From Escherichia coli (lineage in GTDB: Bacteria; Pseudomonadota; Gammaproteobacteria; Enterobacterales; Enterobacteriaceae): DNA of 16,403 bases. Shown here piece after piece: positions 68-7,228 of the stretch. The stretch is taken from assembly GCF_048403405.1 (NCBI RefSeq), contig NZ_CP183130.1. One strand, 5' to 3'. The notes beneath the pieces were generated by a model. That model made no database searches. It was not told the DNA's origin and saw only the letters and a list, made by a program, of their open reading frames with translations. The number at the start of each line of letters is the position of its first letter. The first letter of the stretch is position 1. The position numbers and the translations under genes are program-made.

Positions 68-472
68 TTAATGTTGTTTCTTGTTTCCAGGAGATTCTGA
101 TCGACTGGAGCAGTATATTTCTTGCGTAGCAGAATCAACCGCAGGCAGGATCGCTTTTGCATTATTACCAGCAGACTGCAGAAATGCCTCCAGCAAACGA
201 ACGACTTCACCATTTTCCTGTTGTGGTAGCGTACTACTGATAATTCGTTGAATATCCTGCATAGACGTGCTGTCTGTCAGGAATTCAGCTATCAGGAACG
301 GCAATCGTTCATCCTGCTTCATCAATGCAGCACCACACAACATCATGGCCCGCATTGCCCGACCACGTTCTTTCTGAGGCAATTTTTCAAGAAACCTGTC
401 AGCCACCCGATCAGCTGCATTTCGTTCCGGATAAATATAAAAAGAGCACTTACGATTATCAGCCATACTCAT
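68..472 (-). CDS. parR: ParR/StbB-like centromere-binding adaptor of a type II (actin-like) partition system
   Basis: 134-aa ORF directly downstream of parM with a 4-nt ATGA start/stop overlap. Translation (KERGRAMRAMMLCGAALMKQDERLPFLIAEFLT) resembles plasmid R1 ParR as I recall it. Family assignment is from memory, not a search. Confidence 0.8.
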   Translation of the reverse strand: MSMADNRKCSFYIYPERNAADRVADRFLEKLPQKERGRAMRAMMLCGAALMKQDERLPFLIAEFLTDSTSMQDIQRIISSTLPQQENGEVVRLLEAFLQSAGNNAKAILPAVDSATQEIYCSSRSESPGNKKQH

Positions 473-1449
473 CCCTTCATTGCCATCATTCCCAACACCA
501 GATCGAACTGAGGATTGTCACTGACAAAGAAACGGTTATCACCCACTCCTGTCGCTTTTTTTACTGCCCCAGCCACAAGGCTGGCACCACCGCCAACAAC
601 CATAACATGAGTAAAACCAGCAAAGCGTCCTACTGAATCCGCCACACGATAATGCAGTTTTTTTTCCCGGTCACGTAATACTGTCAGGATCCGCTCACGC
701 TGTTCTGCATTCGGGATATAACGGGTCAGGAATTCATTGTCATCCCGGCCCTGGATTAGACGATCTGCAAAATAAGAACTGGTTCGTGTACTCACATTCA
801 CATCCATCGCATGCTTAACTGCTTCAGTAATGATGGAGACGCCAGTCTTGGGGTCACAATAGGTTTTTGTGAAACCTGACATTTTGCTGCGGACATGTGC
901 AATATCAAGGGTCGTTCCACCGATATCAACAATCAACAGCGACTCCAGATCATTCAGATCTTTCAGCACGTCAAAACCGGCAGGCACGGACTCAGGCAAG
1001 ACACTGACTTTACGAATGGTAAAGTTTTCACGCCCCTGAACTGTTACAGTTCGCCGGACATTATTTTTCTTACGTTCGATATTAGCCAGATTTGGCTGAT
1101 CGTTCTCATCCAGATACTCACCTAAAGGTAAAGTCACAACAATATCAACAGGTTGTGGAGCAATACCTGACTGCATCAACGCATGATGAATAGCAACCAC
1201 ATTAACGTCGCTGTACTGATAACGCGTTTCTGTGGTGCGCACTGCATCCGGACTCAATTGATCAAAGCTGTATTTTTCTCCATCAATCTCATAGTTTGCG
1301 GAAGCGGGTACAGTGGCATCAGTCAGTCCCTGCAGCGTCATAGACCATTCCGGCTTAAAACTATTCGGACTAATTAACGTTTTCACTGCACCGTCTTCAA
1401 CCCAGGCCAGTTTGATGTTGGTAGAGCCGTCGTCTACAAAGATACGCAT
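469..1449 (-). CDS. parM: ParM/StbA actin-like partition ATPase
   Basis: 326-aa ORF; N-terminus MRIFVDDGSTNIKLAW and internal LLIVDIGGTTLDI, HVMVVGGGA motifs match actin-fold ParM of R1/R100. GAGG RBS 7 nt upstream of the ATG. Confidence 0.9.
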   Translation of the reverse strand: MRIFVDDGSTNIKLAWVEDGAVKTLISPNSFKPEWSMTLQGLTDATVPASANYEIDGEKYSFDQLSPDAVRTTETRYQYSDVNVVAIHHALMQSGIAPQPVDIVVTLPLGEYLDENDQPNLANIERKKNNVRRTVTVQGRENFTIRKVSVLPESVPAGFDVLKDLNDLESLLIVDIGGTTLDIAHVRSKMSGFTKTYCDPKTGVSIITEAVKHAMDVNVSTRTSSYFADRLIQGRDDNEFLTRYIPNAEQRERILTVLRDREKKLHYRVADSVGRFAGFTHVMVVGGGASLVAGAVKKATGVGDNRFFVSDNPQFDLVLGMMAMKG

Positions 1450-1560
1450 CTAGAACCTCACATAAATAAAATGGATTTTTTTAGAAAAATACGAGATCAA
1501 AAACGATTATCACCTAAAACAACGTATCGGTAAAGACCTGATATCGGCCACAAATGGAAA

Positions 1561-1660
1561 AATAAAGAAAAACACAGACAAAAACCGACACCAACAGCAC
1601 AAAAGAGAACAAACAAGAACAAATAAAGATAAACACTGATGAAATCCAGAAAAAACTCAA
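1561..1660. repeat. Putative parC-like centromere: about ten A-rich units with ~10-bp periodicity (approximate consensus AAACAAGAAC) upstream of parM
   Basis: Chunking 1561-1660 into 10-mers gives related units (aacacagaca, aaaaccgaca, aaaagagaac, aaacaagaac, aaacactgat ...). Position upstream of parMR is where ParR-bound iterons are expected. The repeats are degenerate and were aligned by eye only. Confidence 0.35.
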
Positions 1661-1786
1661 AGCTTCATATACAATGTCAGTAATTCATCCTCTGACGCCA
1701 CCACTACCTCCAGCCAAAATGAGCGGGTAAGATATCCGGAGCCTTATAGTCAGGAGGCTTCTACAGGAAAGCTGATGAGGAAGAGA

Positions 1787-2122
1787 ATGCGAACGATCAC
1801 CACACGTGAACAGTTATTAGTGAACGGAAAAGTCAGGGAACGGATTGCCACACATATCGTGACAGGCGCTCACGGGTATGAAACGCTTTGCACAAGTGGT
1901 TATAACTTACAATACAATAAGGAACGGGTACTGATTGAAAACTGCGAAAAGGTGGCTGATGGAGAACTGCCTGTCACCTGCCACACTTGTTTCTCTATAT
2001 GGCAGGATGTACACCGGTTCAAACCTGGTGACTTTGACACAGAATCAGGAAAGGGAAATTTCACTGATACGGAGCTCACGAAAATCACAATTGGACAAGA
2101 AAAAACGCCGAATGCGTGTTGA
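1787..2122 (+). CDS. Hypothetical small Cys-containing protein (start ambiguous, 1775 or 1787)
   Basis: ORF 1775..2122; the second in-frame ATG at 1787 has a GAGGAA RBS. Product has a CHTC pair and further Cys residues. No family recognised. Confidence 0.4.
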   Translation: MRTITTREQLLVNGKVRERIATHIVTGAHGYETLCTSGYNLQYNKERVLIENCEKVADGELPVTCHTCFSIWQDVHRFKPGDFDTESGKGNFTDTELTKITIGQEKTPNAC

Positions 2123-2173
2123 TGTGCCGCGTCAGCCGGCGCAGTAAAAAGAGGAGCATGGCGACATCCTTTA

Positions 2174-2203
2174 CCGGAAAAGAAACGGGCGGTTGCCCGC
2201 CCG
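2174..2203 (-). terminator. Intrinsic terminator-like hairpin downstream of the 323-aa minus-strand gene
   Basis: Perfect 7-bp GC stem CGGGCGG/CCGCCCG (2186-2192 and 2197-2203) with a 4-nt loop; on the minus strand it is followed by TTTCTTTTCC (plus 2174-2185). Confidence 0.45.
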
Positions 2204-2216
2204 TCTCCGTCATACT

Positions 2217-3143
2217 TCATCCACCGTAATGCGCCACCTTGTCGACTATCCACGCAGGTCCGGTGACTTCCGGCAGCTCATCATCATCTGTCGGGGAAGA
2301 CCATTCCAGCTCCCCCCACAGCACATCAACAAGCTCTCCGCGCTCATACAACTGCCAGCCACAGAAATCACAGCCCTGTTCGGCATACCAGTGCTCCAGC
2401 GTGCAGCTGAAACGGCGGCTTAATTCTGCAATAACGTCGCTTTCCGGCTGACACCACGGCGTGTCGAAATCAACCTGAATGAAGTTGTCTCCCTGACTAC
2501 TGATATTCAGGTCATACCCACAAGGCCACTTCACGCCATACCGTTCTGTATACCAGTGATATGCAGAAGGAACACCGTTCAGAACACCGCCGTTAAAGCC
2601 ATTCACTTCAATATCCAGGCGGGTCGGCAAAACCGTCAGCAGGTCAAACGGCATGGTTTTTTCCGGCAGTACGTTGTCACACAGACGGTTCCACCACACC
2701 GATACATCCTCGTTACCCCAGATGTCACACCAGTCACCTCTTTTTGCGGTGAAATGCACAGTGATAGTTTCCCTGACATCATCCGGTAACTCTTCCCAGC
2801 GACGCTGTCCAGTACCGCTCTGCAGCCAGAGTTCATGCAGCATCAGGCAGTTTTGCTCATCCAGCAGTACACCGTTCTGCAGGTGTGTCAGCCAGCGGGT
2901 GAACGCGATATTTTCCGGTGATACAGCACCACGTCCGGCAGCCGTCACTCCGGGGCACTGCTCAGAGCGGATATTTTCAGTGATCTGCAGAAGTCCGGCA
3001 CTTCCGGCCAGAAACAGCTGAATACCTTCATTTGTGGCGCGGCGATAAAGCGGTGTGACTGCACCGCTGGCCAGTCGTTTAATCTCAGCGATCTGTGCTG
3101 GTTCACCAGAAAAATACATACGATTCGAGCACCAGTTTGGCAT
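2217..3143 (-). CDS. Conserved-looking hypothetical protein (~308 aa), Trp/Cys-rich, function unknown
   Basis: ORF 2217..3188 minus; GAGGAG RBS sits 8 nt before the internal Met (MPNWCSNRMYF...), so the start is placed at 3143. Long intact ORF with an rho-independent-type hairpin after its stop. No family confidently recognised. Confidence 0.65.
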   Translation of the reverse strand: MPNWCSNRMYFSGEPAQIAEIKRLASGAVTPLYRRATNEGIQLFLAGSAGLLQITENIRSEQCPGVTAAGRGAVSPENIAFTRWLTHLQNGVLLDEQNCLMLHELWLQSGTGQRRWEELPDDVRETITVHFTAKRGDWCDIWGNEDVSVWWNRLCDNVLPEKTMPFDLLTVLPTRLDIEVNGFNGGVLNGVPSAYHWYTERYGVKWPCGYDLNISSQGDNFIQVDFDTPWCQPESDVIAELSRRFSCTLEHWYAEQGCDFCGWQLYERGELVDVLWGELEWSSPTDDDELPEVTGPAWIVDKVAHYGG

Positions 3144-3379
3144 GGGAATTCTCCTCTCACATGCGGCCTCCATCAGGCCGTGCCGCACCTGTAACCGGGC
3201 GACCGCATACGAATGCAGGTGCGGCCCCGAAGCCGCAGCGCGTGGAGGAGGAACGACGAAACGTGACCGGGTGAGGAGGCCGGCGACAGCGACACACTTG
3301 CATCGGATGCAGCCCGGTTAACGTGCCGGCACGGCCTGGGTAACCAGGTATTTTATTCACAGAACCGTGCGCAAAATGC

Positions 3380-3388
3380 TGTGGATAA
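3380..3388. promoter_or_regulatory. Perfect DnaA-box 9-mer (TGTGGATAA) in the GC-rich intergenic region upstream of the imp promoter
   Basis: Exact match to TTATCCACA on the complementary strand. A single 9-mer can occur by chance; function not established. Confidence 0.25.
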
Positions 3389-3466
3389 GCTGGACACAGC
3401 AGTCCACAGCAGGCATACAGCCACACTCCCAGAGAATTGAGCGTTTTTTAGTCACAATAATGACAT

Positions 3467-3515
3467 TTGACTGTGTGTGGATTCAGTTATTAGAATACTG
3501 TATATGCATACAGCA
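3467..3515 (+). promoter_or_regulatory. imp operon promoter (-35 TTGACT, -10 TAGAAT) with a LexA/SOS box TACTGTATATGCATACAGCA
   Basis: CTGT-N8-ACAG at 3498-3513 within TACTGTATATGCATACAGCA (3496-3515), close to the LexA consensus TACTGTATATATATACAGTA. TTGACT at 3467-3472 and TAGAAT at 3491-3496 with an 18-bp spacer. The box abuts the -10 and lies ~22 nt before the impC ATG. Confidence 0.8.
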
Positions 3516-3536
3516 ATAGAAAAGGGAGATGAGAAC

Positions 3537-3785
3537 ATGATCCGCATTGAAATTCTTTTCGACCGCCAGAGCACAAAAAACCTCAAATCAGGCACACTTC
3601 AGGCGCTACAGAATGAAATCGAACAACGTCTGAAACCACACTACCCGGAAATCTGGCTGCGTATAGACCAGGGCAGCGCCCCGTCTGTATCTGTCACAGG
3701 AGCCCGCAACGACAAGGATAAAGAACGTATCCTGTCTCTGCTGGAAGAAATCTGGCAGGACGACAGCTGGCTGCCTGCAGCATGA
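3537..3785 (+). CDS. impC: ImpC, small first gene of the impCAB SOS mutagenesis operon
   Basis: Internal ATG at 3537 with an AAGGGAG RBS gives 82 aa, the size I recall for ImpC of plasmid TP110. Stop overlaps the impA start (ATGA). Confidence 0.7.
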   Translation: MIRIEILFDRQSTKNLKSGTLQALQNEIEQRLKPHYPEIWLRIDQGSAPSVSVTGARNDKDKERILSLLEEIWQDDSWLPAA

Positions 3786-4219
3786 GTACCGTTTATCACC
3801 GTCCGGCTGACCCTTCAGGCGATGACAGTTACGTGCGACCGTTGTTTGCCGATCGTTGCCAGGCCGGTTTTCCTTCGCCTGCCACTGATTATGCTGAGCA
3901 GGAACTGGATCTGAACAGCTATTGCATCAGCAGACCTGCAGCCACCTTCTTTCTGCGCGCCAGCGGTGAATCGATGAACCAGGCTGGCGTGCAGAATGGT
4001 GATCTGCTGGTAGTGGACAGGGCCGAAAAACCACAACACGGGGACATCGTTATCGCTGAGATCGACGGTGAGTTCACCGTCAAACGACTGCTGTTGCGCC
4101 CACGCCCGGCACTGGAGCCGGTTTCAGACAGCCCGGAGTTCCGCACACTGTATCCGGAAAACATCTGTATTTTTGGTGTTGTCACTCACGTGATACACAG
4201 GACGCGGGAGTTACGCTGA
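3782..4219 (+). CDS. impA: ImpA/UmuD/MucA-family LexA-like self-cleaving accessory subunit of DNA polymerase V
   Basis: 145 aa; candidate Ala-Gly cleavage site (CQAGFP) and S24-peptidase-like GESM ... VKRL motifs. Translationally coupled to impC and impB. Confidence 0.9.
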   Translation: MSTVYHRPADPSGDDSYVRPLFADRCQAGFPSPATDYAEQELDLNSYCISRPAATFFLRASGESMNQAGVQNGDLLVVDRAEKPQHGDIVIAEIDGEFTVKRLLLRPRPALEPVSDSPEFRTLYPENICIFGVVTHVIHRTRELR

Positions 4220-5490
4220 TGTTTGCACTGGCTGATATCAACAGTTTCTACGCCTCATGTGAAAAAGTTTTCCGCCCGGACCTTCGCAACGAACCGGTCA
4301 TCGTACTCAGCAATAACGATGGCTGTGTGATCGCGCGCAGCCCGGAGGCAAAAGCCCTTGGCATCAAAATGGGGCAGCCCTGGTTTCAGGTGAGACAGAT
4401 GCGCCTGGAGAAGAAAATACATGTATTTTCCAGCAATTATGCGCTGTACCACAGCATGAGCCAACGGGTCATGGCTGTTCTGGAGTCGCTTTCTCCCGCA
4501 GTTGAGCCCTACTCAATTGATGAAATGTTTATTGATTTGCGGGGGATAAATCATTGCATCTCTCCGGATTTTTTTGGTCATCAGCTCAGGGAACAGGTAA
4601 AGAGCTGGACAGGACTCACCATGGGGGTGGGCATTGCGCCTACAAAAACGCTGGCTAAAAGTGCACAGTGGGCAACAAAGCAATGGCCACAGTTTTCCGG
4701 AGTGGTCGCGCTGACGGCAGAAAACCGTAATCGGACCTTGAAGCTACTGGGGCTGCAGCCAGTTGGTGAGGTCTGGGGAGTAGGACGCAGACTGACGGAA
4801 AAGCTGAATGCGCTGGGTATTAACACAGCACTGCAGCTGGCGCAGGCTAACACGGCATTCATCCGGAAAAACTTCAGCGTCATTCTTGAGCGTACGGTAC
4901 GCGAACTCAACGGCGAGTCCTGCATATCCCTGGAAGAAGCACCACCGGCAAAACAGCAGATTGTCTGTAGTCGCAGTTTTGGTGAACGAATCACAGACAA
5001 AGATGCCATGCACCAGGCTGTTGTTCAGTATGCAGAGCGGGCCGCAGAGAAACTACGTGGGGAGCGTCAGTATTGCCGGCAGGTGACGACATTTGTACGG
5101 ACATCCCCCTTTGCAGTAAAAGAACCCTGTTACAGCAATGCCGCTGTGGAAAAGCTTCCATTGCCCACACAGGACAGCCGGGACATTATTGCCGCCGCAT
5201 GCAGAGCCTTAAACCATGTCTGGCGTGAAGGGTACCGCTATATGAAGGCAGGAGTCATGCTGGCTGATTTCACACCATCGGGTATAGCACAGCCGGGATT
5301 ATTTGATGAAATCCAGCCCCGTAAAAACAGTGAAAAGTTAATGAAAACACTCGATGAACTGAACCAGTCGGGAAAAGGGACAGTGTGGTTTGCGGGGCGA
5401 GGAACCGCCCCTGAGTGGCAAATGAAACGGGAAATGCTTTCTCCTGCGTATACCACCAGATGGACAGATTTGCCAGTAGCCCAGTTATGA
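4219..5490 (+). CDS. impB: ImpB/UmuC/MucB-family Y-family translesion DNA polymerase
   Basis: 423 aa; N-terminus MFALADINSFYASCEKVFRPDL...VIVLSNNDGCVIARSPEAKALGIKMG is near-identical in pattern to UmuC. Start overlaps the impA stop. Confidence 0.9.
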   Translation: MFALADINSFYASCEKVFRPDLRNEPVIVLSNNDGCVIARSPEAKALGIKMGQPWFQVRQMRLEKKIHVFSSNYALYHSMSQRVMAVLESLSPAVEPYSIDEMFIDLRGINHCISPDFFGHQLREQVKSWTGLTMGVGIAPTKTLAKSAQWATKQWPQFSGVVALTAENRNRTLKLLGLQPVGEVWGVGRRLTEKLNALGINTALQLAQANTAFIRKNFSVILERTVRELNGESCISLEEAPPAKQQIVCSRSFGERITDKDAMHQAVVQYAERAAEKLRGERQYCRQVTTFVRTSPFAVKEPCYSNAAVEKLPLPTQDSRDIIAAACRALNHVWREGYRYMKAGVMLADFTPSGIAQPGLFDEIQPRKNSEKLMKTLDELNQSGKGTVWFAGRGTAPEWQMKREMLSPAYTTRWTDLPVAQL

Positions 5491-5669: not shown

Positions 5670-6296
5670 ATGATAATAGTATTAGGTAGTCAAAAGGGTG
5701 GGGTAGGTAAAAGTACACTGGCGGTATCTATAGCTGCGTATCTGATGTCACTAGGCAATAGAGTGATTATTGTCGACGCAGATGACCAGAAATCAGTATT
5801 AACCTGGTACAACAATCGCCCTGAAGATTTCCCTCATATTCCGGTTACAGGCGCGACAGGTAACATCAAAGCCATGTTAAAGGAACACGAAAAATCCTAT
5901 GATTTTGTTATTGCAGACTGTGCTGGCCGTGATAGCGCAGAAATGCGTAGTGGATTGATGGCCGCAGATGTATTCATTTCTCCTTTGCGCCCATCTCAGA
6001 TGGACCTGGATGTTGTGCCTCATACATGCTCCGTTTTTACAGCAGCAAAAGATTTTAATGAGGATGTTCGGGGATATCTCGTTTTAAACATGACGCCCAC
6101 AAATATGTTTGTTAATGAAGCCAATGAGGCAGCTGAAGTACTTAAGGATTACCCTGAAATGCATCTGGCAAACTCCCGGGTATGTGATCGTAAAGCACAT
6201 CGAGATGCTTGGGCCGAATCAATGACAATTTTTGAAACGCAAAATGATAAAGCCCAGCAAGAAATCGAAGCGTTAGTGAAAGAGGTTATTCTGTGA
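5670..6296 (+). CDS. parA: Small ParA/ParF-type Walker ATPase (type Ib partition)
   Basis: 208 aa; deviant Walker A GSQKGGVGKST near the N-terminus. Size and layout match ParF-like partition ATPases. GAGG RBS. Confidence 0.85.
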   Translation: MIIVLGSQKGGVGKSTLAVSIAAYLMSLGNRVIIVDADDQKSVLTWYNNRPEDFPHIPVTGATGNIKAMLKEHEKSYDFVIADCAGRDSAEMRSGLMAADVFISPLRPSQMDLDVVPHTCSVFTAAKDFNEDVRGYLVLNMTPTNMFVNEANEAAEVLKDYPEMHLANSRVCDRKAHRDAWAESMTIFETQNDKAQQEIEALVKEVIL

Positions 6297-6595
6297 GAAA
6301 TAGAGCAAACACTTCACCTCGTGACGAGGCAGCATTTATTAACGGTGGCACGGCTGGCCTTGATAATACCAAAAAGTCATCAGATAAATCATCGGTTGTA
6401 AGCAAAGCAAAACCAGTGAGTATTTCTTTTTTTGAAGAAAACCTAAAAGACATTGATGCCCTTATAACGGCTGAGATGGTTTCAGGTAAAGGCAGAGTGA
6501 ATCGTTCTGATGTTGTCAGGGCGGCGGTAGAAGCACTTAAAACACTATCAAAAACAGAGGTATCACGATTGATAGCAGAAGTAAAACAAAGATAA
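6293..6595 (+). CDS. Small partner protein of ParA (ParG/ParB-like centromere-binding protein, putative C-terminal ribbon-helix-helix)
   Basis: 100-aa ORF starting at GTG that overlaps the parA stop (GTGA), with AGAGG upstream. C-terminal RSDVVRAAVEALKTL resembles an RHH strand-helix; N-terminal half is low-complexity. Position fits a ParG-type adaptor. Confidence 0.6.
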   Translation: MRNRANTSPRDEAAFINGGTAGLDNTKKSSDKSSVVSKAKPVSISFFEENLKDIDALITAEMVSGKGRVNRSDVVRAAVEALKTLSKTEVSRLIAEVKQR

Positions 6596-6658: not shown

Positions 6659-7228
6659 AATGTATTTTAGGATGACCTATGTTGAATAGAACCTAAAACA
6701 AAACAAATATTAATAGGGGTCCGCTTGGAAAAGCGGAAATTTTCCCACGCTAAGAGAATTGAGTTGAACGAGTGGTTACATCCAGGCCAGCTAACTCACT
6801 GAACCCCGTACAGGATCAGACATTCGGTATCTCCTTCATCCTCTGAGGAAAACAAATGAATTAACTGCTTACGTATATGGATACATATACAGTATTAATT
6901 TATTAAGGAGAAAATGGCATGTCAAGATTTAATGATAGTGATTATCATTAACATGAAGTGATGTTACACCGTTCAGAAAGCCTGCTGACGCTGTGGCAGC
7001 ATCACAGTCTGAGTATTCTCTGGTGCAATACAAAAACCGGACTTTCCCGTAACAACAGACAATGTTACGGGAAAAGTTACAGAACTGAGCCACAAAATAT
7101 CTCAGTACCTGAGATGCATAAAAACACCGTACATATGTTTCTCAAAAGGGGGATGATCGTTATCCAGCCATTTCGGTGGATCGGTATGCAGAACACCAAT
7201 CTGCTTCATGCCGGTATGCTGCCTGGAT

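Follow-up and report, generated by a model that had tools for sequence, protein, structure and literature searches.

A leading-region DUF1281 gene and a small convergent ORF placed beside it by an insertion in Escherichia coli plasmids of the IncI complex

The plasmid region in which DUF1281 genes are found is the first to enter a recipient cell and is known to carry first-line countermeasures against host defence. In IncI/IncF-type plasmids the order of genes is DUF1281, the orphan methylase M.EcoGIX, klcA/ardB, ssb, psiB and ardA, followed by oriT. Samuel et al. (2024; PMC11541004, supplementary file 3) listed DUF1281 as family 27 of the top 100 leading-region families, with 1,949 members, a median position of 22 from oriT, location on the leading strand and the label "Uncharacterized; DUF1281"; zero sequence or structure matches to anti-CRISPR or anti-restriction proteins were reported for this family (PMC11541004). 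Several genes of the array are preceded by long hairpins. That of klcA/ardB has been described both as a class 2 single-strand promoter, ssp2, and as a replication roadblock (Wen et al. 2025, PMC12672017; Fraikin et al. 2026). It lies 5' of klcA/yfgB and ardA and has been described for pESBL and F (PMC12672017; bioRxiv 10.64898/2026.01.09.698686), and the methylase hairpin is a class 3 single-strand promoter, with a start confirmed by 5' RACE in pESBL (PMC12672017). The pESBL transcriptome study named only six zygotically induced operons (ssi1-3, klcA, ardA and M.EcoGIX), and it did not name a DUF1281 promoter (PMC12672017). The F study named four induced operons, DUF1281 again not being one of them.

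The window analyzed here is a stretch of 16,403 nucleotides of E. coli DNA (NCBI RefSeq assembly GCF_048403405.1, contig NZ_CP183130.1). Positions 1500-3500 have 100% identity with numerous plasmids of E. coli, Shigella and Salmonella, among them p85 from E. coli 1943 (NZ_CP023362), an IncI-complex plasmid typed as IncI-gamma/K1, MOBP and MPF_I. The initial annotation had pointed to a convergent pair of genes between two partition loci, one for a small Cys-rich protein and the other for a 308-aa Trp/Cys-rich protein. By coordinates this location is correct (stbB/parM at 68-1449, parA/parB-like genes at 5670-6595). The impCAB operon also sits between these loci, and the insertion described below includes the parM locus. 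Inspection of the ORFs agreed that both are intact and are genuinely protein-coding, uncharacterised genes. The features of the window are as follows.

8-2126: insertion of 2,119 bp relative to R64 and pESBL, defined by blastn and a direct repeat; holds stbB, parM, the parC-like repeats and the small ORF
68-472, minus strand: stbB (Pfam match on StbB)
469-1449, minus strand: parM (Pfam match on ParM)
about 1550-1648: AC-rich parC-like repeat region, within the insertion
1787-2122, plus strand: small ORF, 111 aa (alternative start at 1775, 115 aa), with a putative single zinc site formed by H23/H29, C35 and C65-x2-C68
2127-2186: copy of a direct duplication of 60 bp, with 92% identity to the other copy, which ends at position 7 (repeat search and junctions)
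2176-2207, minus strand: intrinsic terminator of the DUF1281 gene, with an 11-bp GC-rich stem, a GCAA loop and a U-tract
2217-3143, minus strand: DUF1281/YubB (Api92-like) gene, 308 aa
3151-3158, minus strand: Shine-Dalgarno sequence GAGAGGAG, serving ATG 3143 of the DUF1281 gene
3174-3339, plus strand (template strand for DUF1281): long imperfect hairpin, a candidate single-strand promoter or replication roadblock
3477-5490, plus strand: impC/dinI-like, impA/umuD-like and impB genes
5670-6595, plus strand: parA/parB-like genes
7229-8317, minus strand: yagA
near 8800-9400, plus strand: ProQ/FinO-like gene
10953-12116, minus strand: repA with the PK-repZ pseudoknot

Zero RNA families were found by Rfam in 1400-3600, PK-repZ being its sole match in the window.

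Although the large protein had initially been left without a family, it can be confidently described as a full-length DUF1281 plus DUF1281_C member with a solved homologue. Residues 30-206 matched PF06924 (DUF1281) with 159.8 bits (cut-off 27.3), residues 209-282 matched PF18406 (DUF1281_C, or YubB ferredoxin-like domain) with 57.3 bits (cut-off 22.8), and the protein matched Api92, which is encoded in a Yersinia pseudotuberculosis pathogenicity island (PDB 2IJR), with an E value of 3e-47. Its fold agrees with that of 2IJR; a ferredoxin-like beta-sheet of the large protein combines an N-terminal strand (residues 4-12) with C-terminal strands (213-278), and a helical insert of ~190 residues lies between them. 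A profile search against 1.84 billion cluster representatives detected 325 clusters with E below 1e-10 and 3,421 with E below 0.001. The family is spread over Enterobacterales and beyond, and in BFVD its relatives are "YubB ferredoxin-like" proteins of phages and giant viruses, all of them unnamed. DUF1281 is a named family but not a well-characterised one. A functional name for the large or the small protein was not obtained from NCBIfam, PADLOC or PHROGs, and our literature search found no experiment that assigns a function to the DUF1281 family. Sequence or structural similarity of DUF1281 to known anti-restriction or anti-CRISPR proteins (ArdA, ArdB/KlcA, ArdC, Ocr, Acr) was not found.

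The reading frame of the large gene is intact and encodes 308 aa counted from ATG 3143. The PGAP call is shorter by eight residues (300 aa, from Met9 at 3119) and removes the most conserved motif of the family. The GAGAGGAG Shine-Dalgarno sequence, an alignment with Api92 that begins at residue 3 and the retention of MPNWC in homologues support the upstream ATG as the probable start, and for these reasons we prefer the 308-aa version.

In R64, all genes from DUF1281 (50,577-51,503) to oriT/nikA (about 66.9 kb) are on one strand. This array contains a DNA methylase, a KlcA/ArdB-type antirestriction gene, ssb, a ParB-like gene, psiB/psiA, ardA and DUF4942, and impCAB is located on the opposite strand directly past DUF1281. 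The gene order is the same in pESBL (pESBL-EA11). In both plasmids the co-oriented leading array has DUF1281 as its gene farthest from oriT, with the orphan methylase M.EcoGIX next to it. DUF1281 is located on the leading side, about 20-25 ORFs away from oriT, and has the same orientation as ssb, psiB and ardA. In a plasmid identical to the window, DUF1281 is on the same strand as the methylase, klcA and ssb, with oriT itself outside the window. At 90% or higher nucleotide identity, the gene was detected in 4,888 of the 72,556 PLSDB records. Proteins with 46-60% identity, encoded in Klebsiella, Salmonella and Pantoea plasmids, head an array of methylase, YubE, DUF1380 and KlcA-type genes, and a relative with 33% identity is encoded behind ArdA and ArdC in the same direction, such that distant DUF1281 relatives co-localise with ArdA, ArdC and KlcA. 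Thus, DUF1281 resembles the leading-region genes for ArdA, KlcA/ArdB, PsiB, Ssb and M.EcoGIX in its gene array, its strand and its similar upstream hairpin. However, it has neither homology nor structural likeness to these proteins and has not been reported to be zygotically induced.

The hairpin upstream of DUF1281 has inverted repeat arms at 3175-3201 and 3313-3339 and is located between this gene and the divergent impC promoter, near which a LexA box occurs (3498-3513). It folds stably as single-stranded DNA of either strand (z -3.0 to -5.1). From the gene orientation in R64 and the published model, the DUF1281 template strand would be the transferred strand. The 3' arm carries TTGCAT (3298-3303) and TAACGT (3319-3324), separated by N15 and directed towards DUF1281, and the hairpins of KlcA/ArdB-type genes have the same TTGCAT-N15-TAAnnT block. 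The base stem GCCGTGCC/GGCACGGC and a second stem, CCGGGC/GCCCGG, are also common to the window hairpin and those of klcA. We aligned seven hairpins, namely three that precede klcA in plasmids of E. coli, Klebsiella and Salmonella, two that precede DUF1281 in the window and in Pantoea, and those of the Pantoea methylase and Pantoea klcA. The consensus structure has 39 pairs, 15 of which show compensatory changes.

Like ssp2, the window hairpin is a long template-strand hairpin with both stems, with TTGnnn-N15-TAnnnT in its 3' arm and with a -10-like box that is placed at an internal loop and oriented to the downstream gene. The two also differ. The window hairpin is shorter and less stable (174 nt and -50 kcal/mol, compared with about 240 nt and -74 kcal/mol), their identity is only about 74% over about 73 nt, and the -10-like box is a poor one (TAACGT instead of TAAGAT) behind a short 15-nt spacer; neither a transcription start nor induction has been reported for the window hairpin. 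Its stability is short of the published mining cut-off of -75 kcal/mol, and the TTGCAT and TAACGT boxes are weak. The region upstream of DUF1281 in pESBL is nearly identical to that of the window, and F carries the same region. A different element precedes DUF1281 in Klebsiella and Salmonella plasmids, where over 220-280 nt this 5' region shares 83-91% identity with the methylase hairpin, and in Pantoea the region matches both the methylase and klcA hairpins of the same plasmid. DUF1281 has thus repeatedly been equipped with elements that drive early expression of the neighboring anti-restriction genes.

Position, synteny and upstream elements together argue for a role of DUF1281 in establishment or anti-defence. 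Our overall explanation is that DUF1281 is a leading-region factor of this kind and that the small ORF is an unrelated, insertion-borne gene; we give it a probability of about 0.5. The DUF1281 protein would act in the new host soon after transfer, and the 5' hairpin would probably give transcription, or slow complementary-strand synthesis, while the DNA is single-stranded. It should be noted, however, that the argument for this role draws on association among the closely packed genes of a backbone, which is weak evidence.

Conservation within the family points to the N-terminus of the protein. Across full-length relatives (28 sequences, down to 19% identity) the only invariant residues are Met1 and Cys5, and MPNWC is nearly invariant down to 19-30% identity, being the start of 34 of the 57 full-length cluster representatives. 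An exact aromatic-Gly-Gly C-terminus, which is YGG in the window protein, occurs in 28 of these 57. In closer homologues the polar residues N7, R8, H103, D137, D167, D177, N181, K205, D225, D227, H251 and E255 are invariant as well. Of the motifs that had been listed for the large protein, MPNWC is indeed conserved, whereas the Cys of CGYD (C208) is variable and only the second Cys of CDFCGW (C261) is widely kept. The protein is acidic (pI 4.5) and contains 16 Trp (5.2%) and 10 Cys (3.2%), and the suggestion that it binds metal was not supported, as it has no conserved multi-Cys/His site and Cys5 is the only invariant Cys in the wider family. The CxxC formed by C258 and C261 is replaced in Api92 and in distant members, which argues against a structural metal site, and H251 is variable in distant members. 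A Cys-His-Asp triad (C5, H251 and D225-227) was also considered and rejected, since the His and Asp are lost in distant members.

If DUF1281 is an establishment factor, its likeliest mode would be to bind or covalently capture a host or plasmid partner via a site around the invariant Cys5, and we propose an early establishment or anti-defence function acting through this site only tentatively. A broader version appears somewhat doubtful to us. In it, DUF1281/YubB would represent a new class of establishment or anti-defence effector with a fold unseen in characterised proteins, the hairpin would be a seventh, previously unreported element of IncI/IncF leading regions that acts as a single-strand promoter or roadblock, and Cys5, along with the conserved free C-terminal aromatic-Gly-Gly that roughly half of the family has, would provide a reactive or docking site for neutralising a component of host immunity.

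The same residues could also belong to an enzyme that depends on Cys5 or on an N-terminal Pro, with DNA, a nucleotide signal or a host protein as its target and the adjacent orphan methylase as a possible partner. The invariance of M1 and C5, the common MPNWC start and the many polar residues kept in closer homologues are all consistent with catalysis, and in R64 and pESBL, among other plasmids, DUF1281 directly adjoins the methylase. Removal of Met would leave Pro2 at the N-terminus, a feature of tautomerase and Fpg-type catalysts; we take this as a lead only. We regard the enzyme as an unlikely alternative to the establishment factor described above.

It is similarly improbable that DUF1281 is a dispensable passenger next to a hairpin that serves another purpose, for example priming or stalling of complementary-strand synthesis or insulation from the SOS-regulated impCAB promoter. 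In the F plasmid the gene is frameshifted into ORFs of 183 aa and 145 aa, so that laboratory transfer of F does not require DUF1281; this frameshift is probably also the reason for the two-piece model of the family in Pfam. DUF1281 is outside the six induced operons of pESBL and the four of F, the roadblock role documented for the class 2 hairpin ssp2 of F is independent of its promoter role, and the window hairpin is located between divergent genes with the LexA box nearby. However, the 308-aa reading frame is kept in more than 4,600 plasmids (at 90% or higher nucleotide identity), the family is conserved in Enterobacterales and beyond, as reflected in its 325 clusters with E below 1e-10, and the gene has repeatedly gained copies of single-strand promoter elements that are verified and correctly oriented.

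The small ORF has a different origin. In R64 and pESBL the 60-bp repeat is present as a single copy, with the DUF1281 terminator on one side and the methylase hairpin on the other, and the 2,119-bp insertion that contains the small ORF is missing. Among the matching plasmids, which number more than 5,000, only 197 have the arrangement of the window. The two genes had been described as sharing a hairpin between their 3' ends that reads as a terminator on the minus strand. The second part of this description is correct. The hairpin (2182-2207) begins 10 nt past the DUF1281 stop codon and reads on the minus strand as GAGACGGGCGG-GCAA-CCGCCCGUUUC, followed by UUUUCC; its fold of -27.6 kcal/mol (z -3.3) was equaled by 0 of 200 shuffles. 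On the plus strand a T-run is absent after it, so that it has the character of a Rho-independent terminator on the minus strand only. A consensus terminator scan missed this hairpin, and it was verified by folding instead. The sharing of the hairpin, and the pairing that it implied, did not stand up to comparison. An identical terminator sequence follows DUF1281 in pESBL and R64, both of which have no small ORF at that site, and the small ORF is on the insertion. The terminator thus belongs to DUF1281 alone. With the same terminator in all three plasmids, the insertion and the rarity of the arrangement indicate that the convergent pair is a secondary juxtaposition, in which the small ORF, as an unrelated floating plasmid gene, was brought beside DUF1281 by insertion of the parMR cassette.

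A functional unit of the two genes, either toxin-antitoxin-like or made of a regulator and its target, and coupled via the terminator or convergent transcription, is for these reasons extremely improbable. The genes are adjacent, convergent and 94 nt apart, and the small ORF is without its own terminator, such that its transcript would enter the 3' end of DUF1281. However, each gene is found without the other, its homologues occurring in separate contexts: the small ORF has homologues with no adjacent DUF1281 in the pilI-pilL interval, in Klebsiella and Pantoea arrays and in a MOBC plasmid, and DUF1281 loci elsewhere are without the small ORF. The distribution already refutes joint action, and the pair is an ordinary feature of the plasmid backbone in which convergence and hairpin have no joint function.

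The small ORF extends from 1775 to 2122 on the plus strand and is intact, with 115 aa from its first start and 111 aa from ATG 1787. The latter is the likelier start, judged from the 111-aa length of most homologues counted from the equivalent ATG, an AGGA Shine-Dalgarno sequence of its own and the agreement of PGAP. We detected 115 homologues in Enterobacterales, and the ORF itself in 1,958 plasmids, two thirds of them from Klebsiella (tblastn); relatives were absent from Pfam, NCBIfam, PADLOC and PDB. A homologue with 70% identity is located between pilI and pilL in some IncI1/B/O plasmids. In Klebsiella and Pantoea plasmids other members close arrays of small genes, and a small MOBC plasmid has one next to mobC and a thermonuclease gene; in total, at least four different genomic contexts retain the ORF. 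The homologue in the pilI-pilL interval is a replacement and not an orthologue of R64 PilJ (150 aa) or PilK (196 aa), which fill the same interval; an identification of the small ORF with either protein was rejected (best BLASTP E values of 0.26 and 3.3, respectively). A 111-aa gene downstream of DUF1281 in Klebsiella plasmids was likewise rejected as a copy of the small ORF, as the two are unrelated.

The description "Cys-rich" fits the small protein better than the large one. It has 5 Cys in 111 aa (4.5%), including a conserved CPxC knuckle and Cys35, which are accompanied by His23 and His29. Across 43-94% identity, the residues T3, T5, T6, G14, P62, T64, C65, C68, W72, F78 and F83 are invariant. 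Thus, C65-x2-C68 is kept in all (mostly as CPxC), C35, H23 and H29 are at least 90% conserved, and C53 and C111 are not conserved. Zinc-finger matches in Pfam were sub-threshold (E 0.04-0.08) and limited to 2-3 of 24 members, and no confident fold was obtained, the model being of low confidence around residues 29-37. The residue pattern is compatible with a single zinc site but is no proof of one, and the product would be a small cytoplasmic protein that probably binds zinc. Its dN/dS was 0.22 relative to the 70%-identical homologue and, in comparisons with the Klebsiella and Pantoea homologues, pN was only 0.25-0.36 with synonymous sites saturated, values which, on sequence evidence, show a real gene under purifying selection. 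Finally, a chance ORF in the spacer from parC to the junction would account for the missing consensus sigma-70 promoter upstream, for the missing family match and confident fold, and for the variable C-terminal tail with its frameshift variants, but is hardly conceivable in view of this selection, the 11 invariant residues and the number of contexts.

Both genes and the large-protein family were already present in public databases, and the family is included in the published list of leading-region families. The present finding identifies the genes and shows that their pairing is accidental, and it leaves the picture of plasmid establishment unchanged. DUF1281 is, however, carried by roughly 1 in 15 PLSDB plasmids, mostly conjugative resistance plasmids of E. 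coli and Salmonella, and a family with a crystal structure since 2006 is still functionally uncharacterised. The upstream hairpin, Cys5 and the conserved termini provide a testable lead. If DUF1281 is indeed an early-expressed effector, it would be a new class of protein, and possibly a new target, in the establishment of resistance plasmids in new hosts.

In the RefSeq annotation (PGAP) of the identical p85-type plasmid (L001), the DUF1281 gene is called as a 300 aa protein with Met9 as the start (window 3119-3143; L001 10620 and beyond), and the invariant MPNWCSNR strand is thereby lost from the protein. A strong Shine-Dalgarno sequence is located in front of the ATG at 3143, which is the true start of this gene. 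The copy in the F plasmid (L023, NC_002483, 6811-7781) carries a frameshift that splits it into two ORFs, of 183 and 145 aa. The Pfam DUF1281 entry covers about 170 residues, and the division of the family in Pfam into two domains, DUF1281 and a "YubB ferredoxin-like" C-terminal domain, probably arose because the F copy is frameshifted.

RefSeq also contains "hypothetical protein" CDSs of ~100 aa drawn on GC-rich hairpin DNA, i.e., on single-strand promoter elements. These CDSs are almost certainly not genes. The intervals concerned are as follows:

L001 (p85-type plasmid) 7230-7541, hairpin-DNA "hypothetical protein" CDS
L018 (compared plasmid) 6693-7004, hairpin-DNA "hypothetical protein" CDS
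L023 (F plasmid) 7785-8090, hairpin-DNA "hypothetical protein" CDS
Window 3157-3426, minus strand, ORF over hairpin DNA

Divergent from the DUF1281 gene is the impC/impA/impB operon (dinI-like, umuD and umuC), which is preceded at window 3467-3513 by a sigma-70-like promoter (TTGACT, N18, TAGAAT) and, immediately after it, a perfect LexA box, CTGTATATGCATACAG.

We observed AC-rich imperfect repeats with a spacing of ~10 nt in the interval from parM to the small ORF (window 1550-1648), for which Tandem Repeats Finder returned no score. This region probably supplies the ParMR system with its parC centromere and its promoter. Near its 3' end, the small ORF contains an A-run (window 2095-2105) in the same place as the frameshifted C-terminal variants of its database homologs (e.g., cluster P0121, 243 members). 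The final 7-10 residues seem to be free of constraint, and 4 nt separate the stop codon from the insertion boundary.

Further features of the window were as follows:

12084-12232, minus strand, PK-repZ pseudoknot upstream of repA (Rfam, 188.9 bits)
12775-16403, right end of the window, genes for a NusG-family regulator, a 220-aa protein, an NfeD-like OB-fold membrane protein and a flotillin-family protein

PK-repZ represents IncI-type replication control by antisense RNA and pseudoknot. In a related IncI plasmid (L019), the same NusG-family/220-aa/NfeD-like/flotillin-family set is found immediately 5' of the pil (thin-pilus) genes.

The match list included many singleton "fusion" proteins in which DUF1281 was joined to PsiB, N6_N4 methylase, ProQ or DUF1380 domains; these have the appearance of deletions, or of assembly joins, between the repeated hairpin elements and not of genuine domain fusions. 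In two metagenomic contigs (L027 and L028), a distant DUF1281 relative (33% identity) occurs directly 3' of ArdA and ArdC, with the genes of the array all running in one direction, which is a second, independent association of DUF1281 with anti-restriction genes.
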